A DNA stretch of 50,296 bases, counting the filler, from Perkinsus olseni (Eukaryota): NCBI GenBank assembly GCA_013115125.1. It is 2 parts of 2 records of this genome, joined end to end, with 100 filler letters (N's around TTAATTAATTAA, not from the genome) between each part and the next. Parts side by side here need not be neighbours in the genome. Positions count along the whole stretch, not along the records: positions 25,216 to 50,296 come from JABANN010000500.1; 1 more part is not named here. The stretch is one strand, 5' to 3'. Both the position numbers and the translations under genes were made by a program. The notes under the pieces were generated by a model that was not told the origin of the DNA, searched no databases, and saw only the letters and a program-made list of their open reading frames with translations. Positions 554-48,050 of the stretch are shown piece after piece (within the stretch, counting starts at the first letter, position 1; each line of letters begins with the position of its first letter).

Positions 554-3500
554 TCATGCCAGATTGGCTTGCATGCCCGTGCTAGAGTCTAAATTAGCGG
601 CCACCGGAGTGGCAGCAGAGTGCTGCTGAGACCGAGTCAATGGCTCGTTACCGCCTCCCGCCACTGGCGGGGCGAGGACTGTCTGAGCTGAATGGGAGAG
701 ATCTCCGCCACCAAGGTTGGGGTTGAGATTCTCCCGTACTTGCACTCGCTCGACGCCTCCATCTAAATAGATAGTTCGGAGTTGGCTGTTGCTCGCTGGA
801 GGTTCTTGCTTTCACCAGCTGCCACTCAGTCTGATTAACTGCAGCATACACAGATGGCCTATCGAGCCCCTCCTCGGAAACACTCGAGCTGTTCAACCTC
901 CCACTGTGAACGCAACTTTTCGACTTGGGGGATACATCAGTAGTAGCACAACGGCCATTATGCATGATTCAAAACTCATAAGCACAATATGCTACGGCGA
1001 TCTCCTTCCGTACGTTCATCTTCGCATTGGAATCATCACAGACATATGTGACCTCCCAGAAGCCTTCAAAGGGAACACATCGGTACCAATCCTGAGGGGG
1101 CTCCAACGGCAAAGTAACCTACAAGAGAGTAGGTACGAGAGTACTGATCCCCCTGCGTTCAACGGCTGTACATCTGGCGAAGTCCCAATGCGCGAGTTGA
1201 TGAAGCGACTGTCTTCCGCTCGTTTCAAACGTAATACGATCTGTGCAAGGACACGACCTTCATGAGTGCCAAAGTGACATTTGAAAACTGAGTTGTCTGC
1301 CCGAAGGGGATTGAGAAGATTCAACCTGAGGAATCTCATTTGACCAGCAAGATGGCTCGAGGAAGGGAGTTACATTCCAAGACGTCGTTCTAGTAAACTG
1401 ACACAAGTCGGTCCGAATTGGGCCGGAAAGCCCAACCGAGGGCGGCAGAAGTGCTCCCGGATACTGACGTAATCTACTATACGATTATACCTGACGACGA
1501 GGGCGAAGGGAATGGATGGCCGTCCTGCTGCTGCTGCAGTGGCGGTGGGGGGCTGCTGCTGTTGACCACCTACAACATTATGAATATGTCCCTCCTAAGC
1601 TGCACGTGATGATTGCTGATTGGGAAGAGGACGAGGAGGTTGTCCACTTGGGCACATTTGACGTAGAAGTGATGACTGACTCGCCTCAGGCACATCATTA
1701 TCTACATAACGGCCACCGTCCAGTCCGGAATGAGCAGTCGCTACCACTCACCACTTCTGGGCTGAGCCGACCTTCACTCAAGGCGTCCTGGATAGATTGG
1801 GTGACCTGAGAAGCGCCCGCACACCAGCGCCTCTTCCGAAGTCCCTCGTTACCCGGAGCCAAGCCTCAGCTGTGATTGGGACGGCTGTTTTGGGCGCCCT
1901 GTGAGGCGATATGTAGTCGAACTCTAAAGTTCCCGAACTCGGCAGCGACCAATCCTGACCGTATCTGGGAAAGTGTTGAGGAAGACTCTTGTTGTTATCG
2001 GCTCCTCCTCACTTGAAGGGAATGCCATCCATGTGCTCATTTCTGAAGCACTGATAGTTGCCGTACTGACTGACGTCGGGTCGCCCTTTCGCTTTACACC
2101 ATTCAACGTCCCACCTGTTTGTGCATCTGAAAGGCATCACCATCGAGGGAACTTGTGACCAGCAAGGGTCTACAGAAGATGCTCTGCCACCATGTAATGG
2201 TCTGCCGTCTTCAGATCGAGCTTGTAGTGCCCTGTCGGGTTGGAGCCGCTAAAGATGAAGTACCTGTCCAAACGCTGATTACCAACAACAGGGGCGACAG
2301 TAACCCGTACAACTTGATGTCTGCTGGCCGCACCAGGCGTTTATTAGAAACTTTCTTCTTCCCCGGCATGGCTATTCCCAAAGGAAGAGAGGCCTGAGCT
2401 GAGGGGCTCCACAACCGCAGCTCTCACGGAAGTCGGGGGCGACCTCTTGTGTGAAGATTGTGATCTTGGCGAGGTAGTCCAGCAGCGACAGGGCATGGGC
2501 CGGGTCCAGTATCTTGTCCAGGAAGGTCTCTAAGAGGAATACCTGGCAGTTTGAGAGAGTGCGACCGTTAGCAGCTGGCGACCACGCTCCGTCACTTTCA
2601 ACTCGCTGGTGACGGTAGCGTTGAAGAGTATCGACACTTGCTCTGCTTCGAGGGCGAAGTCCTTCGACAAGGCTTCGATGATGGGCCTTCGGGATGAGTC
2701 TTGGCCACAATGGGTGTAACTGACAGGAGGATCCCTTTTCGAGTCCAATAGCATTCACGGATAATCATGTAAATTGTACACAAGATATTCATAGACACTT
2801 TGATATTCATTCAATCACTAAAAAAATTACCATATATCAGTTTCACTATGACACAATAGGGAACAGACCAGTGGAACGAGATTGCTTAGAAATGCTTCGC
2901 TCGACGGTGAAGTTGCGTACCATCTCATCAGCCTCTGGAAAAGATCGTCCGACAGTCTCTTCCGTATAGTTCTAGTCGGATCATCATTCAGCGTATCCGG
3001 ATCCACGGCAGCCTCAGGAGACTTCTGCCGGTACCTGCGGTAGAGACCTCCAAGCACACGAAGAGTCCACAGCAAACCAGTACACGGCGGTGTAGGTGAG
3101 CATCCCCGCGTTGGGGAGTTGCCAAACATTCTCCTCATCCAACTCGAAGCTCGTCAGGGATGCACCATCGTGCCGTATCTACAACAACGTATCTTATCGT
3201 CATCCTGGCCGTAGACAGAATAAGTTACCTCGTAGAAAGTGTCAGGGAAGCTGATGGAATCTTCTATGATTTGCCATCGCCTCAGACACTGTCGAGCCAC
3301 AGCTCGATTGTAGGGGTTTTCCATGTGAAGCCGATAAGACCCAGTGGGGTCCAAGAAATTGTAACTGTGGACGAATAAGTGGACTTGTAAAAAAGCTAAA
3401 ACATGACCTACTTCGCTCCGACGTCGAGGGAGTCATCACCGTTGCCACCATCCCCTGGCAAGCAGGCTCTCACTATAATTACCCTCACCCTGATGATGCT

Positions 3501-6500
3501 TACCTTTGGGTGTGTCATCCACGCCCGAGAACTCACATCGATCAACGTCGACAAAGTACATCTTACGATCGGGCGGGTAGGGGTTGAGGTACCTGACCAA
3601 AGCATCAGCCAGGCAAAAGGGAAGAGGAGAAAGCCGCTACATCAGTCTTAGAAGGGCTCGGATGCCATCGGCTCCTAAGGGATTGTTGGATACTAGTACG
3701 GTGTGGATGCTTGGGTGAATGCACAGGGAATCCGCCAAGACCTGCCTTCGACCTAAGATACCATCTTAGGCTAGCAGCAGTCTTACGAAAGCGGATTGAT
3801 AATTGAGCTGGGAGTTGCGCAAGTCCACATACTCGACGCTGGCGATGCCTGATCGAGAGAGGACTAGTGGCCGCGGAGGAGGAGGTATTGATGACGTACT
3901 GCCCAGGTAGGTGCACAGAATGTTCATGCAGGGGAAGCAATTATCGAGGGCCTTCCGACCGACGCACTCCTCCAAGGCCACGAGGCCAGCCTTACCGAGG
4001 TAACCAGACCGGGCGAAGTGAGTACCCAGAGAATGACTCAGCAACCTGAGGAGGAAGAGATTTCCCAATCGCCCCACTCGACCGAATGCCGGCAGCGGAC
4101 TGATGATTCTGGCACGTCATCATTCTCACGGGGCATTGTGGCGGAGCACAGGCTCTGGCCGGGCCGACCATCATCGTCCGACTTACACCGAGTTGTTGGC
4201 GCAACTTAGCGATGTGACTACATCAACCTCTGCCAGGGCGAATCCGATATGGTCCAGGGCCCTGAGGGTGGTGGAGCATTGGCAGCAGCAGCAGCACCAC
4301 CACCACCTCTACGAGAAGTCTCACATGTGGTTGAGGTGATTGCCGGAAATATCCAAAACCTTGAGGTGCTGCAGTCGAAGGATCATATCGCCGACACAAA
4401 TTGGGCCCTGGTTTGACCATCGACCTGACATCATTCAATACCACTCCTTTCGAACTTCCTGAGCTGCTGAACTCACCAAGGGCGGTGTAGCTGAGATCGA
4501 GCTCCTCGATAATCTCGTTGTCAAGGCCTTCTAGTAGGATGGCATACGCGTAGTCGGTGATGTTGATACCCGACAGTTTGAGAACCTGGGCGACGAGTAG
4601 TGGAAGGTACGGTACGAGATTGACGACCCCTCACCACTAGTTTGGGCACTAAATCATCCTGCAGTAAGCGGCCAAACGACCTGATGGTGTCCGTCCCCAG
4701 GGCTATGTTGTCACTAAGATCGATGAACTCGACCGAGTCCAACCATTCAGCTTCCTCCAGGCGGTCCAGGAGAAATCTGAATTTGGAAATCTAGAAGCAT
4801 TCCCGGGAAAAGTCCAACAGTAAGATTACAGGAAACCCCTATCCGTAATAGAGTTGCCATTCAAGTAAAGCCTCTTCAGTGGCTGGCTGCGTATCTGCAA
4901 AGATGCGCTCGGCGGCGTCAACTCTGCGGGTTGGATCACCTCCACTGCGCCGGTGACGATCGCCTCCAGTTCTCTGTCGGAAAGGCCTTTATGGGAGAGA
5001 ACCTGACAGGTGATGAGAATAAAGAAAAGTGTGGTATGAGAAGTTGCAAGCAAGAGACCGGGAGAGATTGAACTGAAGGTAGAAAGCCCTACAAGATCGT
5101 TGACGCCGAGGGGGGCGGCCAGCACTGGGAGGGGGGTCGGAGGAAGACCTCTAGATCGCACAGCCTCGAAGAAGGCCAGGCAGCCGGGGTATCTATCGAC
5201 CTTCTTTGTGTAGAGCAAGAGTGGGGTGTAAGATACTACTTGAATTGTTGTTTGACGATCTTTTCTAGCTCATAATTGATTCGTGGCGCCTCCTCGGAGA
5301 ACTCGCGCCAGCTAGAAACATCAAGCCCTGGGAGGAGCGTTTCCAAAACCTCCGCGGTACGACTTCGAGCCAAGGGCTTCTCCGGCTCTTCCGATGGTAT
5401 CAAAGGTCGGCCTACGAACTTCGCGTGAAAAAAGATACGTCAGTCCCTCGTCTCGAACTACCCGTCTCCCTCTGCGCTATACCCGGTAGTCTGCTGCTGT
5501 TGGTCTCAGCCGATCCATAGGTAGCCGGCCTTCGGAAATCTGAGAGGACAGATGGCAGCTCCCCTCCTGCTTGATGCCCTCACCTTCCAGTGCGTTGATG
5601 ATCTGCGTACCAAGAAGGCCTTTCGCCTTGAGTTTCCGTCGGACCCCGAGGGGCATGTTTTCGATCTCTCGGCCATCGCCACTGAGATGATCCTCGCAAA
5701 CGTGCATCATACGCGACTTGGACAGAGCCAGTGTGTCGTCGAAGCCGCCTTGTGAACTTAGCATCTTTTCTCCTGCAGAATACCATGATCGACCTCAAGA
5801 TTCCGACCCCGAGAAGCCGACTTGATAGCGTGCTTCTCGCCGTGTCTATCCTTCTATCCTGCTGTTGCAGCATGATGGGCGGCTGGGACGTGAGGGCTTC
5901 CGAAGGCCAATTCCTTCTGGACAGTTTGCTCAACACTCTGCACACAGGAAGCCGTCCCTGGCGCGCAGGAGAGCCTCCACCTACTTGTTCCGGGGCTGCA
6001 TCTTCTCGTCACTACTGGTCAGTTTCGGCAGGGTGACGGCGGCGGACTCCGGTCCTTCCGCGGGTCCGGCGTGACTGACATGACAGCATACCGAGAGGGC
6101 GGAGGGAAGGGGGTCTAACCCTTGGGGGGAACTCTCTGGTGGAGGGGGGCCACTGGTGTTGTGCAACCCGTCACCGGCGGGCGCCGTCTCACCACTGCAA
6201 CGAGGGGAAGAGTATAGCTGCCAACTGTGCCGGGAAAATCACTTACCCGTTCTCATCCGTATCCTGGAGAGAGTTCCCTTGTAGATCGCCCCTTCGCGTC
6301 ATGTACTTAGTCTGTTCACTGACTCGATACCTGACCACAGCCCCCTCCCATCTGGACTAAGCTGAGCTTGTGTGTGCCACGCCGTCGCGGCGCTTAGACT
6401 CTTTTCTGCGTTACCCAGCTAGGCCGAATGCTGCTGTCACAACGAGCGGAAAGGACAGATGCTCTGAGTCGCTCCTGGCAGGTTAGCTAGGTTGAAGAGC

Positions 6501-7370
6501 ATGTTGCTACATCTGCCAGTAGTTGTCGTAGTTGGCTTCCTGAGTGACATCTGCCATCTGATTGTCCGACGAAGAAAGGTCTGAAGAGCGGCCTTAGCTA
6601 GGGTAGTGGAGGTCACCTTACCTAGCGTGCTTCCCTTCAGGCCCGGCACCTCTCGCCGTATAAAACCGATTGAGTCACGGGCGCCCTTCGTAGAGAGCTG
6701 AAAGTTACGAATGGAGTGGTATGGATTACGATGAATTACGATGGTTTACTTGGATGAAGCTTGGTCTTCGGCGACGTATTCTGTGTTCCAGATCTATGAG
6801 ATACTGGAAGACCTTCGGGCGAAGAATTGTCAGACCCATGGTAGCCTCGTCATTGGCGACGAACTCGGCCCGAAGGTACTACGTGGAGCATGGCATGAAC
6901 CTAAGGCCCGGCGTTGCCCTCACCTTGGCTCTCAGTTCTGATATTTTCTCGAGCTCCTTTTCCCTCAGAGTGCCTTCTTCTCCCAGTGAAAGGGAGTGCA
7001 TGAAACGCACCTGCACGACTTCCCGTCAACAAACGCAAAAAGGAACTCGTCGAATCGAGAGGGGCTGTTAGCAACGCGTGATGGCAACTTATGGAAGGTG
7101 CTTTCGGATCAATCTTTAAGGGGCTGCCACGAGCAGCCTAACATCTGTTCTCGCCGATAATTGACATACCTCAATTGACCTTACCAGCCAACCTGTGTTC
7201 CTGAATTTATAGTGGAGTCTGAAGGGATCCTCTTGAGAGGTGGCATCATCGCTGTTGGCTTCCTCTGCCCTCTGCTGCTGCTGGGCAGCATCGTCGCCGT
7301 CGAATTGTGAGCCTTCACTCGAGGTCGAGTGCCTCTTCTCCGTTGAGTGCTCTGTCACGTTACAGGCCAT
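554..7370 (-). CDS. Large multi-exon leucine-rich-repeat (RI-like/NLRC3-like) protein; could be more than one gene
   Basis: Chain of minus-strand exons from MACNVTEH (7370) to ...MQANLA* (554). LRR segments PLKRLYLNGNSITDRG, VEFIDLSDNIALG and IEELDLSYTALG; C-terminal DPTGSYRLHMENPYNRAVA motif; short GT-AG introns. Confidence 0.6.
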
Positions 7371-25115: not shown

Positions 25116-25215
25116 NNNNNNNNNNNNNNNNNNNNNNNNNNNNNNNNNNNNNNNNNNNNTTAATTAATTAANNNNNNNNNNNNNNNNNNNNNNNNNNNNN
25201 NNNNNNNNNNNNNNN
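25017..25215. other. Assembly gap/artefact: poly-G run, N runs and TTAATTAATTAA all-frame-stop linker
   Basis: About 100 nt of near-homopolymer G followed by Ns flanking TTAATTAATTAA at 25160-25171. Confidence 0.95.
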
Positions 25216-26987: not shown

Positions 26988-28616
26988 ATGGCTCTCCTCA
27001 ACCTGGTCTGCCTGCTACTTGCCTGGGGCCTCGTCGATGCCGCAGCCAAGGTCGATCAGCCAAAGATCGATCAGTTGGCAGATCTGACTGAGGATTCTCA
27101 TTACAACAACTTCGATCTGTAGCACACTCGATCGCCTAATGATAGTAATGCTGCTGGTCATCAGGTCAGCAGTGATACGTCTTAATATTACCGGATACAA
27201 GGAGTACGCCTTGAAGCAGCCTAAGCCCTATCATATCTTCATCATGTTCACAGCCAACTCTGGTGTATGTAAAGTATGCCCTCACTTGGAGAGGTCCTTC
27301 GATAGAGCATCATTATCTTACTATGCGGTAGTAGTAGTGATAGTAATACTAAGCACAACTGTGTTCATGTCGTATACAGATCGGGGCTCATCACGCAGCT
27401 GATGATGTTGATGGCGATCCAGTATTCTTTGGTATGATAGACGCTTACTCTAACACGGAGCTACAACGACTACATGAGCTGAAGGCAGTACCATTGTTGG
27501 TAGTACTACCATCACCGTGCTGATGCTACTGATGATGCTGCTACTCCGGCGGTAAGGTACATTTTAGTCACAAATCACAGTTGACTAAGAAGAAGAAGTC
27601 CGGCACTCTAGCGATCAAGGCAGCGGATCAGTTCCGAATCTCCAAATATGATCATACTCCTGAGGACTTGCTGGTGTGGATGAACCAGAAAACTGGTCGG
27701 GAGGTGAGGGTCTTCAAGACGCCTCATGAAAGGCTATCGGTAATAATATAAAGTGTTACTCCGCCATCGTCCTTGCATTGACACCTCTACAGAGCGCGTT
27801 AAAGATGCTCTTCGGGGCCGTGTTGTTGGTGATAGTGGGAATCTTCGGTATCTACAGTGCCCGTACTTGGCCTATCACCTGCGCTATTGTAGCCCTCTGT
27901 ATCGAGGTAATAGAGTATGGACCATCATCACTATTATGTTTTTGTGTATAGTTCGTCTCCATGTCCGGTATATTCTTCAATATACTACAGGGTATGATGA
28001 TGCAGGGCAAAGATGCTCAGGGTAACCCTGAATGGATCATGGAAGGGGTAGTGCGACTACAGGCCTATCAGCAGCAGCAACCTTGGTATTTAGATGCGCG
28101 GACAGTATCTAGGAGAGGGGTTGGCGGCCTCCTTCATGATGATCACATCAGGGGTTTGTATGCTGATTGCAGTCAGGCTACCCAGCGTTAAGTATTTCCA
28201 AGGGAGCAAGAAAGCAAGTGAGTAGCTGTACTCCTATTGAAATGGTTGTGGAATCATCAGCCTCTACAGGTAGCATTCAGCTAGTATCGGTAGCAGTAAG
28301 CGTCCTCTGCATGTGGGCTGTGTTTGAGATGTATGCAGTGAAAACTGGATGGTGAGGAGAGCAGGGAGGGGAGGCTAGTCGCCCGTTACTGGTGTTATTC
28401 ATTTCTGTCGTATTTGTCTTGAGACATCGGCTAGGGGGTCATGATGGCAGCAGGTGGTCTGAGGAGTCCACTGTGGGGATCTTGTTCCACTAGGGTTCCT
28501 GTGAGGTTCAGGCTTCTCATCATGTACATGGTCTCAGGGCGATGTCATCGACCTTCTACCCTCCGGATACATACAAGAGAGGCTGGGTTAGAGCTGACCA
28601 GGGCAACACATTCTGA
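26988..28616 (+). CDS. OST3/OST6 (MAGT1/TUSC3) family oligosaccharyltransferase subunit, multi-exon
   Basis: Signal peptide; thioredoxin-like IMFTANSGVCKVCP (CxxC); SGIFFNILQG; RGQYLGEG; transmembrane segments; C-terminus ...DQGNTF*. Confidence 0.85.
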
Positions 28617-28798
28617 GCGGAGCGAAGCTTTTCCCAATCGTAATTTTTGGAAGGATGGTCGTCATTCATGGGGGAGGGGTCTCAGTGTTTGAATGCTCTT
28701 GGTAGTTTATGACTGCTCTTAGTGGTCGTTGTGTTGGGTTGAATGTCTCGACGAGGATTCGAACCCATGCCCTTCGGACTGCAGTATTGTAGTTTCTT

Positions 28799-31700
28799 AT
28801 GACCATCAGCGCCGAGGTTGATCTCACACCGTCACGATGCTTATTGATTGATCATTACGATTCCTACACTCATAATTTAAAAGATATTTTTGAGAGTATC
28901 TTGGGGTCGGAAAATGTAGATGAAGTAAAATGCGATTCGAAGTACGACGCTTCGGTCTTGGACTTGACTAAGTACTCTATTATTGTACTATCCCCAGGCC
29001 CTGGTAACCCTGATAATGCCGACGATCTAGGTGCCCTTACCAGCTCAATACTAGCAATGTACAGTGGTCGTGCTGATGCCTCATCACTACCACTCCTCTT
29101 TGGGGTATGCCTCGGTCATCAGGCCATAGCTGCTGCCTTCGGTGGGAGTATAGTACCATCTTGTCCAGCAAGGCATGGTGTCCGTGCTACAGTGTCCGTC
29201 TCAGCATCTAGGAGCGAAGGGATCTTCGCGGACATCCCCGCTCAGTTCGCGGCTATACGGTATCATTCGTTGGAGGTGGCAGAGGACACCCTTCCAGAGT
29301 GCTTGGAGCTTCTAGCGTGGTCTTGGGATAAGGTCGACGACGTGGAGGTCGAGAGGCTTCCAATCGATCACGTGATCGATTCGGATAGTCCATCATGGTT
29401 ACGTAACCTCAGAGAGAGTCATTGTATATGTAAGGAAGGGTCGGGTAGGAGTAGGCGAGTGCTGATGGCTCTGCGGCATCGCCAGCTACCGATGTTTGGA
29501 GTTCAATTCCATCCGGAGTCTGTGTGCTCCGAGTTTGGTTGGCAAGTATGCTCTAATGTATGTCGTATGGCAAGGGATAGGAAGTTCAGAGTATGTCGGC
29601 CAGCAAGGAGTAGCCTCGACCTTCCAAGCCCCCGCCCCTTGACCCGCACAGGTTCTATCCCCAGCACTGGCAACTTGCAGCTATTCTCTCGGAGCTTCCC
29701 TGTTGGTGATGGTTTTGATGTGCGGACCTTCTTCGAGTCCTTCATCTGCGACTGTAGAGATATTGCAGAGGATGAGCCGGCTCCGGTCGTCTGGTTGGAT
29801 TCGGCTAAGTCGAGCAAGCATTCTAGTGATGGCCGATACACCTTTATGTGTGGTGGAAGACAGGCCCGGGGATCGAACCTGTGCGTTGTGGATGATAAGC
29901 TAGAGCTCCTGTGGGGACGTGACAGCGAACTGAGACCAGACAAGAGCCAGCTGGCGGATCCTGGAGATCCCTTCGTGTTACTCCGAGAATACTGTGATCA
30001 ACTTCGCGGGAAGGTTGGCGGCCCCCTAGAGGTATCATCCCTCCCTCCATTGATACCTCCATGTATCCTAGGGACCTTGGGATACGATGGCCTATCTACG
30101 GTATATATAGTGAGTGATAGGATACTTGCTATCGATCACTCGATCGATATGGTAACGGCACTGCAGGTAGGTGGTGATGACTCCGAGCGATGGTTCGACT
30201 GTGTGGGCAAGGCCGTCAAGGAGTGTACATACCTTGGCCCATACTCTTTCTTCTGCTGCCCGACGCCTGTGAGTCCTCTGGAGCTGCGAGTGAGAGACAC
30301 TCGGGGTTGCTACATGGATAAGATAGAGGCATGTCAACAGGCTATTGCCTTTGGTGACAGCTACGAGCTTTGCCTTACTACCCAGATTGCTACTGATGGT
30401 GATAACCACCGCGTATGCCCTCTATGTGCCTTCATTAGGTTGAGGCAGCGTAACCCCACCAACTACATCGCGTTTATGTACCTACCCTCTATCGGGTATG
30501 TAGCATGCGGGTCACCGGAGAGGTTCTGTAAGGTGGCCGAGGGTTGTGTAGAGATGAAGCCGATAAAGGGTACTCGACCTAGAGGCCAAGATCCTGCGGA
30601 GGATGAGAGCTTAGTGGCAGATCTGGCTACCAGTCCAAAGGATTTTGCTGAGAATCTTATGGTAGTGGACCTAGTTCGTAATGATCTCAATACTGTATGT
30701 GAGACAGGGAGTGTCCACTGCCCTAAGCTCATGAAGGTGGAGAGCTATCAGAACTATCATCAGCTAGTCTCAACAGTTTGTGGTCGTCTACCTATCGAGG
30801 AAGGGTATCACGCCTCTCCAGTTGCTGCCTTAAAGGCACTGTTCCCTGCTGGCAGCATGACTGGTGCCCCGAAAGTGAGAGCCTGTCAGATCCTTGACAG
30901 CTTGGAGAGTGGGCCTAGAGGCATCTACTCGGGCGCCATCGGGTATGTAGCACCACTAAATGACTCGGCTGACTTTGCAGTTGTGATACGGACGATCGTA
31001 TTTGATGGTAGTACGATTACAACAGGGTGTGGAGGAGCTATCGTGGCTGGGTCGAACACTAAAGACGAGTGGGATGAGGTCCTAGTGAAGGCCCGACCCC
31101 AGCTCTGGTCCCTCACTGGTCACCAGGTTATGCTTACTACGGATGTGGGAGTAAAGGCAGTGATCCATCCTAAGGTCTCCTGGGACATGACACATCTTAG
31201 GTTATTCGAGACGATGTTGTTAAAGTGTGGTACGATAGAGTTCCTGGACTACCATGCTCAGAGGTTTGCCGCTAGTGCTGCTGCCCTCTGGGGGGTACCC
31301 CGGGATGAGGCTGAAGCTGCTTTCCGAAGGATTCTCAATGCCAAGCTTGTGGGGGTCATCGGGCCCAAACGGTTGAGGTTGGAGATGAATTCCGAGCTGG
31401 TGGAGGAAGGGTGGCGGTGCGATGAGTGCCCCTTGCCTGTGGCCACCCCACAGCCCCTACGCCTCTCCGAGACCGCAGTGGACCATTCTGACCTACGACT
31501 CAGGCACAAGACTAGTGACCGGAGGGTATATCCCACACAGCCTGACCGTCTACTCTATAATGAGCGTGGTGAGGTCACTGAGACGCCCATCGCTAATGTA
31601 GGGGTGAGAAGGAAGGATGGAGTGATTATCACACCTGCTGGGGACTGTGGCCTCCTCCCAGGCTGCTATCGTAGATGGCTACTGGAGGCAGGCAAGGCAG

Positions 31701-31863
31701 TGGAGGGTATCATCACACTAAACATGCTCAAGGAGTATGCGAAGGAAGGGCGTGAGATTGTGGTAGTAGTGCTGGCGGCTCCGTCATGCACTTCAGTTGA
31801 TATTCTTCTTCTCAGTGCTTCAATAGTGTCCGCGGCATCTGGCGAGCTCAAGTCCAAGTCTAG
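28799..31863 (+). CDS. pabABC: Trifunctional PabA-PabB-PabC fusion (aminodeoxychorismate synthase plus ADC lyase-like class IV PLP domain); exons 28799-31762 and 31816-31863, 1003 aa
   Basis: GATase motifs IDHYDSYT, SPGPG, GVCLGHQ, RYHSL, FHPES. PabB motifs GDSYELCLT, SPERF, KPIKGT, ENLMVVDLVRNDL, FPAGSMTGAPK, GGAIV. Class IV PLP motifs LFETM, H.QRF..SA, HKT, NERGEVTE, GLLPG and, after splicing, NSVRG. Confidence 0.93.
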
Positions 31864-32012
31864 TCAACAGAGTTTTATCATCATCATGAATGATCACTGC
31901 TGCTGGTGTTAGTCCACGTCCAAGTGATGACGTTTCCTGCACCATCCCCTTGTCTTGTATTCCACCCTGGGCCTATCTCCCGTCAGTTTTTGTAATACCC
32001 TTACTAAAAGTG

Positions 32013-34775
32013 ATGTCATCCAACTTACCAGTGGCCCCTCCAAAGTTCGATGAGGCATCTCTAGAGGCGGAGCTCCGGCGTATGGGCCTGGATGATGATG
32101 CTGATGGTGGTGGTGATACCCTCTTCCGGAGGGGTAATACTGATAATGACATCACCAACTTGATGGCCTCTGCATGTGCCTCTGAAGGTGATGATACCTA
32201 GGCGTAAGGGTAGGGCTAGCTATGCTCAGTCTGTAGGTCAGCGGCCAGCGGGCTTATCATGGGCCTCTTCCAACGACGGCAGTCTGAACGACCCGACCCT
32301 GTTGAAGGAGTTGGCTGCTATGTCCGAGGAGGAGGAAGATCCTGAGAAGGTCGATAAAGTCGTGCAGGCTGCCATGTCTGGGGAGGTACTAGGAGATGCC
32401 CCTACATCCTCCCTGCCCCTCCCGCCCATCAGGATAGGTCGTGTAACGCGGTATCCAAAGCCCCCACTGGCCTCACAAGCGAGGAGCTCATGGAGTCCTT
32501 GGGGCTTCAAGATGATGATGATGATGATGATGCGGGAGGACTGGATGGTAGTTGAGCATGTCGCCTTGTTGCCGTTATCGTCGTAGTTGTAGGTGGTATG
32601 GCAGTGGTGGAGGCTGCTGAGCCCCATGCCTGCGAACTGTTGGTCAGCCTTGCGGTCATGGAATGGTACCTCGGGGAGGATGCTCCCATACAGCTGACTG
32701 ATGAAGAAAAGGAGGGTGAGTGGGGACCACCGACTACATCTGGTGAAGTCTTCATCAGAGCTCAACCTTCAAGTCCGGACCCTCACCCTGGATGCTCAGT
32801 CCGGAAGGCTGTCCTCGGAGAAGTAACTAGTACATGAATCTGCTAACTCTTAGCGCTGCTGCTGCTGCACCTGCAGATACGCTGAGAGGGTGGAGGCTCG
32901 GATCACAGCGGATGAAGCTCTCCTAGAACACCTCGGCGTGGCCGATCGTGCGATAGTTGAGAAACGTATAATGATTGCCAAGAGTAGGCCGTTACTGCCC
33001 CTTGTTGCTGCATGGTGTTATGATGCGGTCCTTGATGCAGATGAATTAGCGAGCGATGGGAGCGGAGATGATGAGGGCGAGGACGAGGACGAGGAGGAGG
33101 GCAAGTATGAAGAGTACCGGACAGTAGTGATGAGGAGATTGAGGGAGTACCAGAGAGGTGCCGCTGCTTTGGCTGGAGCTGGCGTTACGGAAAGAGCAAG
33201 GTGGGCCAAGAATGCAAGATTCGGCGTGGGAGTATCCATTCTCCCTAGGGACCTGCTACATTCGGCAGTTGAGCTTAAGGATCTTCTGGAGAGCGGAGCG
33301 AAGCAATACCGTTTGGCTGTAAATGAAGGAAGGGTAAGATGCCGCATTGGCCTTCCGGCGGACTCCACCCATACGCCCAGTAGGTGCCGCCCTCTCTGAC
33401 TGATGAGATACTCATGGGGCAGTCAGAGGTGGACCGTAGAGCGGTGATTGATGAGTTGGAGAACAGGTTGCGAGAGGCCTCACAGCAGCATAAGGAGCAT
33501 GCACTCTTCTGTTTGAAGTAGTACCGGCGAGGTTACCGTTGGTGAAGCTAGAGATGTCGTGCAGGCTCTCCCAGTCACCCGACTTACTCGATCCTCCGGC
33601 CCACGGACAAGTTCCGAGACGCCTAGCAGGCAAACAGAAACCTGAAGAGGCGGATGCGATAAAAAAGTTGAAGGACGAGGCCGTGGTAGGATACTCTAAC
33701 CTAGTTTGTATCTTCCCAGGTCGACCTCTGGATACTCTGCAGATGCATAACACTCTTCGGAAGAACGCTGAGGCCGAGATTGCCTGGCTCGAAGATTCCA
33801 GAGCAGACCGATGGCAATTCGTGCCAACTGGTATGAAAATCTTTGCTGTGCGCTGAGCATCTTCGGTTGATTAGAGCTTGAGAAACGTAGTGTGAAGTAT
33901 ACCCGATTGAATGAAGATGAGGATGTTGAGGAGATGGGGCATTTGAAGGTGTCGTTAGAGGTAGTATCGTCCGAGTTGCTCTCAGCTGCTGTCGTTGCCA
34001 CCATCCATTCTGCCTGAGTAACCCTAGTAGATACCGTCCGAGACAATGAGGTGTCTGAGGGAGTGGTCAGAGGACTACCCCGTGCATCTTGAAGTCACCA
34101 TTCATGGACTGCCTAGTGCCTCCGATCCATACGTCTTTACCATGGAGTTGTTGGTAGTAGTGCTGGTCGTGTTCTATGGGTTTACCGCTCATGGCCACTT
34201 TTAGGGCACCACTTTGGATCATGACTTTGATTTCTCGCACATGCGGCAGACGACAGTAGAGAGGGCATTTGGCAAGGCAAAGATTACTGTCAAGGTGAGC
34301 TCTTCCGTATCTTCCTCGGTCAACCAAAGATACGCCCTATCAGGTTTTCCGGCAGCGTAACGCTTTGGCCAGTCTGTTCGGCAACTCGTTGAAGGAGATC
34401 GGCAGTACCCCCAGTGCGGTAAAACTGGAGGGACTCCAAACTCATACACACCTAGAGGGAGAGTAGGAACTCTATCTACCTCTTATAAGTAGTGCTACAC
34501 TCTCAGCTTGGTCCTAGCCCCCCACACTGGGGACACCCCTGAACCGAGGAGGTCCAACAAGAGGCGCTCATCCATCCAACCCATCATCAAGGTCCTCATC
34601 ACGTCATCTGGCGAGTCCAGTGGTAGTCTACAGGTTCGGTGTCGTCTTCGAGCCCCAGCCGGTCGATCCTCATGGTTGACTGTCAATGAGTATACCTATT
34701 GCGTCCTGCCTACCCCACTGCCTCCGACCATCAAGGACTTCACGCTCAGCAATGAGGCCCAGGATCAGGAGATGG

Positions 34776-35461: not shown

Positions 35462-36603
35462 ATGCCCACGTCCCCTTCCCCTCGTCGTTCGTCGTCCAGA
35501 GGCAGTAGTCGCTCTCGTTCGAGGTCCTATAGCAGAGATAATAGACGGTACGAGAAGAGGGATGAGCCTTCGAGGAGCAGGTCTAGAGGTAGTACTCACC
35601 AGTCCTTGGGGTACACCAGGATGGTATATTTTCAGATGCTGCTCGTGGTGGTGGCGGTGATGGTGGTGGTGAGAGGCCTCGCGAGGAAGGGAGCTACAAC
35701 GAGGGGGAGAGCTGCAGCCTCATCGTCAGGAACCTGGTAGGGGGCATGTATTGGGGTATAGACGTAAGAGGCTATCTGTGCTCTCAGAATTATGATACCT
35801 CTCCACAGCATGTAAGAAGCCTGTTCAGTAGATATGGCGAGATAAGGGACGTGTACCTCCCATTGGACTACAACACTGGCAGGCCTAGGTGCTCCTCCTC
35901 ACCCTCCTCACCCTCCGATAATCATCGCTATTCTCCCTTCATCATCTGCTGTCTTTCTCCGTCTTATTCAGAGGTTTCGGCTTTGTGGAGTTCTGTGATC
36001 ATCGTGATGTGTTGGAGGCGAAGAATGCAATGAACGGCAAGGTTGTTGATGGCAATGCTATTCGTAGGGATTTGCTCAGCTGCCTGCCGCCGCTCTATTC
36101 ATCTTGATCTCGGTTGGCGCGTGTTGAAGCGTATTGGAATCTCAGGGTGATGATGATGGTGATGATGATGTGGGTAGAAGAACTTATCGTCTCGTTCCGA
36201 TGCTCATCAGCATGATAATGATGAAGAGGATGATGAACTTTAGTCGATGATCCCTTATTGGATGATTCAGAAGTTGATATCGCCCAGCGCGGTCGGAAGT
36301 CCCCACACACGATGAGGAGGCTCATCAGTCGCAGAGGAGGCTATGGAAAAGGCAAAGGTTACTACGGTGGAGGAGGAGGAGGAGGATACGGGTAGGACTA
36401 CCGTTCCATCATCCTTCTCTTGACTTGAACGTTGTCCTAGACGTGGCGATAATTACAGTGGAGGTTATGGTGGCGGCTACAGTCCTCGAAGACGTAGTGA
36501 TGATGATTACTCCGGAGGGAGAGGCTATCGAGATGAGTATGGCCGAGATGACCGTCGAAGCCCTAGAAGGCGTTCAAGGAGCTACAGCCGCGATAGACGT
36601 TAG
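35462..36603 (+). CDS. SR splicing factor (single RRM, SRSF10/SC35-like), paralog 1
   Basis: RS-rich ends; [36 protein letters not shown]/RS tail. Confidence 0.92.
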
Positions 36604-44288: not shown

Positions 44289-45284
44289 TCAAGTCGTCTT
44301 CTTTTTGCTTCTCAAACTCGCCCTCGCATAACCGTATACGTCACTACTCCTCAGCAAACCAGCCGCTACTAGTCTCTTCAGACGGACTTTATCCTTGTAG
44401 TCCACGTCAACCAGTGGAATACCAATCTCCTTGCCGAACAGCTGGCGCACTCTCTGAGAGAAATCCTGAGGGTTCTCTCCCTGTTTCGGGGTCACTGGCG
44501 CCATAACGTGTACGTGCATCCTAGTGTACGGCTGAGCCATCATGCCGATAACAAACGTAATGATACTCCCATAGGACCAGTGAGGATCAAACATTTGACC
44601 TCGGACGAAGTCGGGATACCAGACAGCTACCGGTAAAACGGTTTTGCCAAGGCAGAAGGCCCCAGTATGGAAAGTGATCAAGCCCGTACCATTTGACGTC
44701 GTGCCCTCCGGAAACAGCAGCAAAGGCCTCAAATCCTCAGGGCTGACCACGTGAGCTTTGAGGAGCTCCGTCGTCGGTGTAGACTTCTTACCGACCAAAC
44801 GATTAACAAATATGCAATCCAAATATCGCATGCAATCTCCAATCAGAGGAGCCTTTTTGAGAGGAAATTTGCCAACGAAGGCCGGCAGGTATACCGAAAG
44901 AAGATAAAGTACTTCTACAAAGCTGATGTGATCCGCTACGATCACGTGGGACTTATTCGTGAGTTCCTCAGGTTTTGGTGCCGCCGGATCTGCACTGAGT
45001 TCCGGAATAACGCCAAGACAGAACACCGCGAACTTGCCCCAAAACCTCATCGCACCGAAGGCCAGGACGTCAGAATGCGTAAAGTGTCCGATATAGAAAA
45101 CGAGACCAGCAATGAGCATACTGGTGGCGAAGAGGAACAGTCGAATTGGCACCAAGACTACCCCGAGTACTACGCTTCGTACGAAGTAAAACCTCGACAT
45201 CGGGTATCGAAGGAAAGGCTCGGCCTTCCGCAGTACCTCCGGCACGTCTGCCTTGGTTAGCGGCGGTTTCGACGACTCCGGCAT
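44289..45284 (-). CDS. Lysophospholipid acyltransferase (LPCAT/LPEAT, PlsC family), intronless, 331 aa
   Basis: N-terminal transmembrane segment; DHISFVE (HX4D/E), IFVNR, LLFPEGTTSNG and FHTGAF motifs. Confidence 0.92.
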   Translation of the reverse strand: MPESSKPPLTKADVPEVLRKAEPFLRYPMSRFYFVRSVVLGVVLVPIRLFLFATSMLIAGLVFYIGHFTHSDVLAFGAMRFWGKFAVFCLGVIPELSADPAAPKPEELTNKSHVIVADHISFVEVLYLLSVYLPAFVGKFPLKKAPLIGDCMRYLDCIFVNRLVGKKSTPTTELLKAHVVSPEDLRPLLLFPEGTTSNGTGLITFHTGAFCLGKTVLPVAVWYPDFVRGQMFDPHWSYGSIITFVIGMMAQPYTRMHVHVMAPVTPKQGENPQDFSQRVRQLFGKEIGIPLVDVDYKDKVRLKRLVAAGLLRSSDVYGYARASLRSKKKTT

Positions 45285-47066: not shown

Positions 47067-48050
47067 TTAATATATTTGTCCAGATAGACTCTTCCACTGC
47101 TTGAAGACATTTTCACATTCATCAACAGCACAGCCCCAAGCGGTAGTCAGATCACGGTCCTCAGCCTTCAAGGCGAGCTGCTGCCTCTGATAGCAGGCCT
47201 CGGACTCATCAGCAGCACGCTCAGAGTAGAACAACTTCGAGATACGAGCCCACAGGCAAGCACAATGAGAGAAGACATCAGGCTGGGTACTGGCATACCT
47301 AACAAACCAGAGACAATAACACTCAAAGAGATCCACCTGCGAAAACCTACACTTTGCATCCAGTGAGTTCATGAGTGCCGAGAGTTATGGCGGCCATCCT
47401 GATGGCTCGGACCATGGGAGTATCCAAAGCATCACCACGGTCAGATCCACGGGAGAGGCTATCACCGACGAGCTCACCAACAGCAGAGACAACAAGAACG
47501 TGTGAGTGGGAAGTGAGCTGAGGCAAGAATCGTGAATAACAACAAAAGGCTGAGATGTCACTACCTTAGCCATCCACTTCTCATCCTCCTCAGTCTTGGT
47601 AGGGTTTACTGGCATCATGGTACCCGACTCGGGACCGGCAAACTCGTCATAGAATGCCTTATCATCAAAGCCGAATCGAGCAGCACAATAACGATCAGCA
47701 CCAACATACATGACCTTAAGGCCGCTAGCCATGATAGCACCCCAGCACATGGGGCAAGGCTCACAGGTGGTGTACAGGACACAATCAGAGAGCTCAGATC
47801 GGCCAAGATGACGGACAGCATGACGGATAGCGTTGACCTCAGCATGGCAGGTAGGGTCCTTACTGTAGAGGACAGTGTTATGAGCACAACTGATGGGCAT
47901 ACCATCACGGACGACAGAAGCACCGAAAGGGCCACCATGGCGAAGGATAACACCGGCGTTGGCACTCATGCAGGCTGCCGTCATGAAGCATTCATCTACT
48001 TTAGTGACGGTGAGCTTGGACGAAGAAGTCTGTTGTTGTTCGGACGACAT
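47067..48050 (-). CDS. Guanine/guanosine deaminase-like protein (CDA superfamily) with a second, degenerate CDA domain; exons 48050-47565, 47517-47351, 47298-47067
   Basis: GGPFGA, DPTCHAEVNAIR, CEPCPMC and GFDD motifs; the second domain lacks Zn ligands; ends ...W.SLSGQIY*. Confidence 0.88.

Follow-up and report, generated by a model that had tools for sequence, protein, structure and literature searches.

A single expressed gene of Perkinsus olseni encodes a putative trifunctional p-aminobenzoate synthase

One expressed gene carries all three domains

The stretch of DNA analyzed here (50,296 nucleotides of the Perkinsus olseni assembly GCA_013115125.1, filler included; hereafter, the window) contains, at positions 28799..31863 of the plus strand, a gene for one expressed polypeptide that carries a class I glutamine amidotransferase (GATase; PabA-like) domain, a chorismate-binding (PabB-like) domain, and a class IV pyridoxal phosphate (PLP; PabC-like) domain. 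An earlier, sequence-only reading had proposed such a fusion in one frame, and the proposal was borne out, with three Pfam families scoring above their curated cut-offs. The product is most probably a cytosolic, trifunctional p-aminobenzoate (pABA) synthase, which would by itself convert chorismate and glutamine to pABA; we infer both the activities and the location from sequence. Such an enzyme would give a mollusc parasite a one-gene route to pABA and, judging from its relatives, would do the same in other protists and in giant viruses; the earlier reading also put it forward as a candidate drug target in the folate pathway.

The longest open reading frame (ORF) of the window (28799-31912, plus strand) has 1037 codons when unspliced. 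The corresponding 1037-aa read-through protein is ruled out, because a 53-nt GT..AG intron (31763..31815, plus strand) is removed in the contigs of all four sequencing runs examined, which belong to four studies; the P. olseni protein model P0002 also leaves this intron out. The coding part of exon 1 (28799..31762, plus strand; 2964 nt without introns) supplies codons 1 to 988, and that of exon 2 (31816..31863, plus strand; seen in the RNA contigs) supplies 15 codons and a TAG stop at 31861-31863, so that the spliced product has 1003 aa. The last base of this TAG is the gene end that had been given from sequence alone. As for the motifs named at that time, GVCLGHQ, FHPES, RHKT, NERGEVTE, and GLLPG are in frame, while NSVRG comes only with the 16-codon second exon, after the intron.

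Most of the gene stretch was present in 20 of the 24 listed runs. The four examined were taken from these 20 and were represented by their contigs (two are RNA on record, one is guessed to be RNA, and one is of unknown type), and zero letters differing from the genomic stretch were listed. X1 and X18 each had a single spliced contig (3108 and 3072 nt, respectively) that started at 28783, crossed the intron, and reached beyond the stop, and overlapping contig pieces covered the gene in X4 and X7. As far as the contigs show, transcripts do not end before the PLP domain. The single X18 contig beginning at 28783 carried a 9-letter loose end which, together with the following AG, equals the 3' end of PmaSL1 (PMC3101222), and this AG (28783..28784, plus strand; 14 nt before the ATG) marks the trans-splice acceptor at which the Perkinsus spliced leader is joined. 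The identical 9-letter loose end was found at the start of the next gene, at 31985.

Two minor observations concern the 3' part of the gene. In X4 only, a minor form skipped 58 nt (~31603-31660) within the lyase domain, at a depth of 21 versus ~420, and this would shift the frame. In addition, the TAG at 31861-31863 corresponds to a Trp codon in P0002, which runs 10 residues further, and the ten codons past the stop (31861-31893) retain a likeness to the P. olseni tail; the protein of this lineage is therefore 10 residues shorter.

Active sites of the GATase, synthase, and lyase domains

The GATase domain (aa ~15-257; 28841..29569, plus strand) matched Pfam GATase (PF00117) with an E value of 1e-31, the best stretch being aa 15-177, and passed the cut-off of TIGR00566 (139.5 bits versus 121). 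Its Cys-His-Glu triad consists of C104 in GVCLGHQ and H238 and E240 in FHPES, and none of the three varies among the 23 triple fusions aligned. The ADC (4-amino-4-deoxychorismate) synthase-like domain (aa 505-764; 30311..31090, plus strand) matched Chorismate_bind (PF00425) with an E value of 3e-77. Within it, K590 (codon 30566-30568) in the motif PIKGT pairs with K274 of Escherichia coli PabB in the alignment to 1k0e and is likewise invariant in the 23 aligned triple fusions. The part of the synthase subunit that precedes this domain (approximately 29700..30300, plus strand; WLDS motif at aa 332) is diverged: no match to Pfam Anth_synt_I_N was found in the window protein at E values of 0.01 or below, and identity was 20 to 28% to six non-Perkinsus relatives and 65% to P0003.

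The class IV PLP domain (aa ~800-1003; 31196..31860, plus strand) spans the intron and matched Aminotran_4 (PF01063) over aa 802-978 with an E value of 2e-19; K904 (codon 31508-31510) is the lysine of its RHKT motif. Seven residues are strictly conserved across four PabC structures (F27, T29, H43, R46, K140, G199, and R202 in PaPabC; PMC3174152). All seven are present in the fused domain as F803, T805, H819, R822, K904, G955, and R958, mapped by motif and spacing, and the spacing of F-T-H-R and of G-R is that of PaPabC. Among the 23 aligned triple fusions, T805, H819, R822, K904, E928, G955, and R958 were invariant in every one. The phosphate-side motif Asn236/Ser237 of PaPabC corresponds to N991/S992, which is encoded on exon 2; therefore, splicing completes the lyase site. 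Asn991 also matches the N236 that is typical of ADC lyase (ADCL) (PMC8105722). As for an active-site Tyr at position I or II, the sequence has Arg908 at Lys+4, as in PaPabC, and Tyr911 at Lys+7, as in Thermus thermophilus PabC.

The proposed route has three steps. The GATase domain would hydrolyze glutamine via Cys104-His238-Glu240; the PabB domain would use the ammonia to convert chorismate to ADC, via an adduct with Lys590 like that of E. coli PabB; and the PLP domain, with Lys904 as the Schiff base lysine and Thr805 as the proton donor, would eliminate pyruvate from ADC to yield pABA. The pABA would then be consumed by HPPK-DHPS for folate, and the genome carries chorismate synthase, GTP cyclohydrolase I, and HPPK adjoining DHPS, so that all four of the other folate-route genes sought were present. 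The earlier suggestion that this protein alone takes chorismate to pABA thus stands as far as one expressed polypeptide, intact PabA-, PabB-, and PabC-type sites, and the surrounding pathway are concerned, and is a prediction with regard to the activities. The protein is probably cytosolic: only 14 nt separate the leader acceptor from the ATG, and with the GATase domain beginning at about residue 14, no room is left for a targeting peptide.

Alternative readings of the fused protein

Channeling of ADC between the fused domains, which also had been suggested, is plausible because ADC is unstable (PMC8105722), and the fusion offers a natural test case for it. A reading that is compatible with the trifunctional synthase, and that competes only with channeling, is that all three activities are present and ADC leaves to solution between the sites, with the fusion fixing only coexpression and stoichiometry. 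We lean slightly toward release of ADC: the linker joining synthase to lyase differs greatly in length from one relative to another, fusions are known in two orders, GATase-synthase-lyase (A-B-C) and synthase-lyase-GATase (B-C-A), and separate enzymes are enough in Arabidopsis and Plasmodium. However, the chemical instability of ADC argues the other way, as does the Corynebacterium diphtheriae triple fusion DIP1790, for which extra PabC gave no rate gain (7.0 versus 6.0; PMC1971073), a result that fits fast hand-over and is not proof of it.

A less favorable reading makes the protein a bifunctional ADC synthase with a C-terminal domain that has another activity (such as D-amino-acid or branched-chain transamination) or little activity, so that a stand-alone class IV enzyme would convert ADC to pABA. 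Several observations weigh against a lyase assignment and, in part, against the synthase assignment. Two further Aminotran_4 genes (C2937 and C2904) are present in the genome, and a double ADCL/D-amino-acid aminotransferase activity is documented (PMC8105722). The ADCL-typical Tyr22 has no Tyr counterpart, as Thr798 occupies the ungapped position at about the start of the fused domain. Class IV enzymes are hard to separate by sequence (PMC1971073), and pabC models were absent from the best 25 of 50 NCBIfam matches. The best PDB match of the lyase domain, and its nearest solved relative, was 3qqm (Mlr3007; E value, 1.5e-18), the PDB name of which carries no activity. PabB-PabC fusions have been reported as still in need of testing (PMC5535693), and no assayed PabBC-type lyase was found in the literature searched. 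For the synthase, the curated pabB-type cut-offs were missed (TIGR00553, 294.5 versus 328.4 bits; TIGR01823, 331.2 versus 442.55 bits), although these two nonetheless were the top models for the window protein.

On the other side, Thr805 and all seven PabC residues are retained, bacteria, protists, and viruses have all kept a class IV domain attached behind PabB, and the lyase domain is as conserved (64% identity to P0003) as the N-terminal part of the synthase. In addition, the lyase part of the P. olseni protein, as modeled in the ESM Atlas, matches the C-terminal ends of bacterial PabB-PabC fusions with a TM score of 0.87; this structural evidence applies to the Atlas model rather than to the whole window protein. 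Taken together, we consider a merely bifunctional enzyme improbable and prefer the trifunctional synthase.

It is less probable still that the first two domains form an anthranilate synthase (TrpG-TrpE). Anthranilate synthase models did score, with E values of 1e-71 to 1e-63, and the genome search with PF00425 gave no separate TrpE, as its three matches comprised the window gene plus two exons belonging to a MenF-MenD-like gene. However, the top PDB matches of the synthase domain were ADC synthases (8hx6; E value, 2e-71), which ranked above anthranilate synthases in both PDB and NCBIfam, and the TrpE model TIGR00564 reached 232 bits versus its cut-off of 518. The PIKGT lysine points the same way. 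E. coli PabB works through an adduct with K274, and it is this lysine that sets ADC synthases apart from anthranilate synthases; we know of no anthranilate synthase with a lysine at that position. Moreover, a fused lyase would be sensible only for ADC. A Cys of the same domain, C570 in CGSPE, resembles a Bacillus subtilis PabB peptide (PMC6100094) and was considered as a special abyssomicin-reactive residue; this candidate was rejected, as 71 of 278 proteins have Cys there.

An artefact (bacterial contamination, misassembly, or read-through of separate genes), which the 2964-nt coding exon, whereas other genes of this genome came out exon by exon, and the two N gaps in the window at 25116-25215 might suggest, is already refuted by the RNA contigs, with their spliced intron, leader-like end, and lack of differing letters in the four runs, and by the presence of the stretch in most listed runs, the 95% identity to the closest database protein (P. 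olseni FOZ63_031544, a 781-aa model without most of the GATase domain), and the 69 to 70% identity to a second Perkinsus-like protein.

Relation to known pABA synthase fusions

A trifunctional pABA synthase is, as a kind, already known and assayed, and the Perkinsus protein is not the first in enzymology. The sequence-only reading knew of no characterized three-way fusion, and this is refuted by DIP1790, assayed in 2007, which likewise unites GATase, ADC synthase, and ADC lyase in a single polypeptide (PMC1971073). Supplied with chorismate and glutamine, DIP1790 formed pABA at 7.0 nmol/h/mg with no PabC added, and it rescued an E. coli mutant devoid of both synthase subunits, while Arabidopsis ADCS required PabC in the same work; in the supplement, a single gene number, 1719, appears under each of the three roles (PMC1971073). 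Nor is the architecture rare, since all three families occurred in at least 22 of the 120 homologues listed, among them proteins of Planoprotostelium fungivorum and Pandoravirus massiliensis. The ESM Atlas clusters that combine all three domains include one of 65 members from eukaryotes and two, of 197 and 58 members, from Actinomycetota; these taxa were taken from a few members. Actinobacterial-type triple fusions, which differ from the Perkinsus protein in their lyase and have either a KGPD motif or the order B-C-A (as in the bacterial proteins P0273-P0275), were compared in place of DIP1790 itself: a search with two Corynebacterium PabAB proteins gave at least 80 loci, none of those listed being labeled Corynebacterium, and when DIP1790 was sought in further genomes, 9 of 201 and 0 of 3 matched at the thresholds used, none with more than 56% identity.

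The GAT-ADCS (PabA-PabB) proteins of plants, fungi, Plasmodium, and Streptomyces share the first two domains in the same order, and the best PDB match of the window protein was the Streptomyces PabA-PabB 8hx6 (E value, 2e-107); no PDB chain was found that spans all three domains. In contrast to the window protein, GAT-ADCS proteins lack the lyase domain and rely on a separate ADCL, and plants and lower eukaryotes are described as using two pABA genes, for GAT-ADCS and a separate lyase (PMC6100094). Plant GAT-ADCS also is targeted to plastids (PMC6451014), whereas the Perkinsus protein has no N-terminal extension. Two PabA-PabB proteins, P0143 and P0208, had a Mur ligase middle domain or an FKBP domain in addition and may be real fusions or merged models; we take the Mur ligase middle domain to be FolC-like.

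Bacterial PabB-PabC fusions, such as Altererythrobacter P0122, and Mlr3007 (3qqm) have the same short, HKT-type lyase right behind PabB but no GATase, and their synthase domains lie on a branch apart from Perkinsus (99*). Such fusions have been reported in Lactococcus, Streptococcus, and Helicobacter (PMC5535693). Planoprotostelium P0021 and Pandoravirus massiliensis P0067 have the same three domains in the same order, with ~31 to 51% identity by catalytic domain and without the GATase insertion described below; their database names are merely anthranilate synthase component II or p-aminobenzoic acid synthase. The P0021 model also has an HMG-box tail, which may be a real fusion or a merged gene model.

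A GATase insertion of ~45 aa (approximately 29330..29461, plus strand; alignment columns ~250-305) is common to the window protein, P0003, and 14 intron-less environmental triple fusions. The latter are metagenomic proteins of ~1000 aa (P0004-P0014, P0016, P0017, and P0025). From the common insertion and the tree position (87/93, not starred), we infer that these 14 proteins belong to environmental Perkinsozoa, and they might serve as a marker gene for uncultured members of that group.

Origin of the triple fusion

The lyase tree comprised 51 domains, was unrooted, was sampled by similarity to the window protein, and left out DIP1790. Thirty-one rows formed one clade (95/90*), consisting of Perkinsus, 15 insertion-group proteins, Planoprotostelium, 4 pandoravirus-like proteins, and 8 others, with 5 of the 31 being partial and lacking most or all of the GATase domain. 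This clade was nested among six bacterial PabB-PabC fusions, and by both sequence and predicted structure the lyase domain was nearest to the C-terminal part of such fusions. The 14 actinobacterial-type rows (A-B-C with a KGPD lyase, or B-C-A) lay across a 100/99* branch, and uniting 6 A-B-C rows with the 31 eukaryote-type rows was rejected (approximately unbiased [AU] test, p 1.1e-6). In the synthase tree (61 domains; quick, unrooted, and likewise sampled by similarity), the eukaryote-type triple fusions mixed with long, lyase-less PabA-PabB proteins, some of which may be truncated gene models, and were far from bacterial PabB-PabC. Monophyly of the eukaryote-type triple fusions in this tree was weakly rejected (AU p 0.032; one long branch).

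The simplest reading of the two trees is a chimeric origin, in which a eukaryote-type PabA-PabB would have joined a PabBC-type lyase apart from the actinobacterial triple fusions; taken as a whole, triple fusions would have arisen separately at least three times. What seems to be undescribed in the literature searched is that the Perkinsus lyase falls within the bacterial PabBC-type lyases together with its counterparts from an amoeba, pandoraviruses, and protist-like proteins, and away from the actinobacterial triple fusions. No literature on the triple-fusion family in Perkinsus, protists, or pandoraviruses was found among the papers listed, and by title none of the Perkinsus papers listed concerned its folate pathway; subscription papers and genome supplements may already note the fusion.

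Triple fusions in giant-virus loci

A search of viral contigs with a single protein found nothing, while an alignment-based search returned 76 viral loci, 6 of which matched the whole protein. Five of these six were on contigs of 1.8 to 2.5 Mb and one on a contig of 395 kb, and all six encoded intact triple fusions of 1057 to 1125 aa. In each, the divergent neighbor had Ham1-like and GTP cyclohydrolase I domains, which were fused in five loci and adjacent in one. In these IMG/VR giant-virus contigs (L103-L108), the triple fusion stands head-to-head with the Ham1-like and GTP cyclohydrolase I domains, the two sides lying at ~1640-3140 (minus strand) and ~3780-7250 (plus strand). They are probably pandoraviral, judging partly by the named P0067.

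The viral gene pair is a candidate for covering the first steps of both folate branches. Ham1 proteins have nucleoside triphosphate pyrophosphatase chemistry, and we conjecture that the Ham1-like domain might carry out the FolQ (dihydroneopterin triphosphate pyrophosphatase) step. In the text of two reviews of giant-virus metabolism, there was no mention of folate, cyclohydrolase, aminobenz, chorismate, or Ham1. No Ham1 domain was found beside the Perkinsus GTP cyclohydrolase I, as nothing in a 6-kb stretch was better than an E value of 0.6.

A broader scenario is possible, although we regard it as rather doubtful. The triple fusion would be an old eukaryotic family of single origin, built from a eukaryote-type PabA-PabB and a bacterial PabBC-type lyase, with present-day members in Perkinsozoa, amoebozoans, and further protists; loss of the lyase from this family would have given rise to many of the bifunctional PabA-PabB proteins of other eukaryotes. 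Pandoraviruses would have acquired the gene, now head-to-head with a Ham1-GTP cyclohydrolase I fusion, as a viral module starting both folate branches, with the Ham1-like domain performing the often missing FolQ step.

Other genes of the genome and the window

The genome search with PF01063 gave three matches, namely, the window gene and exons of two other genes (C2937 and C2904). A back-up ADC lyase elsewhere in the genome is possible because of these two class IV PLP genes. The stand-alone gene in C2937 (L009; ~3900-5400, minus strand), a possible second ADC lyase, has exons that presumably resemble plant ADCL/D-amino-acid aminotransferase; in PDB searches they matched class IV aminotransferases with E values of only 0.067 and 1.5. 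The other chorismate-binding gene (L008, in contig G000:C2845; ~3400-5400, minus strand) is split by introns, with chorismate-binding exons followed by exons for the N-terminal part of a thiamine pyrophosphate enzyme, and looks like a MenF-MenD fusion for quinone synthesis.

Within the window, 3 of 30 neighboring ORF pieces had a Pfam match, and none was folate related. The next gene downstream (31985-32500, plus strand) has its own leader acceptor ~120 nt past the stop and introns of 47 and 49 nt, and its product is acidic and without a Pfam match. Ordinary genes are represented by an OST3/OST6 piece (27088-27399, plus strand), an RRM piece (35593-36030, plus strand), an acyltransferase piece (44289-45284, minus strand), and a cytidine/dCMP deaminase-like piece (47385-48050, minus strand).

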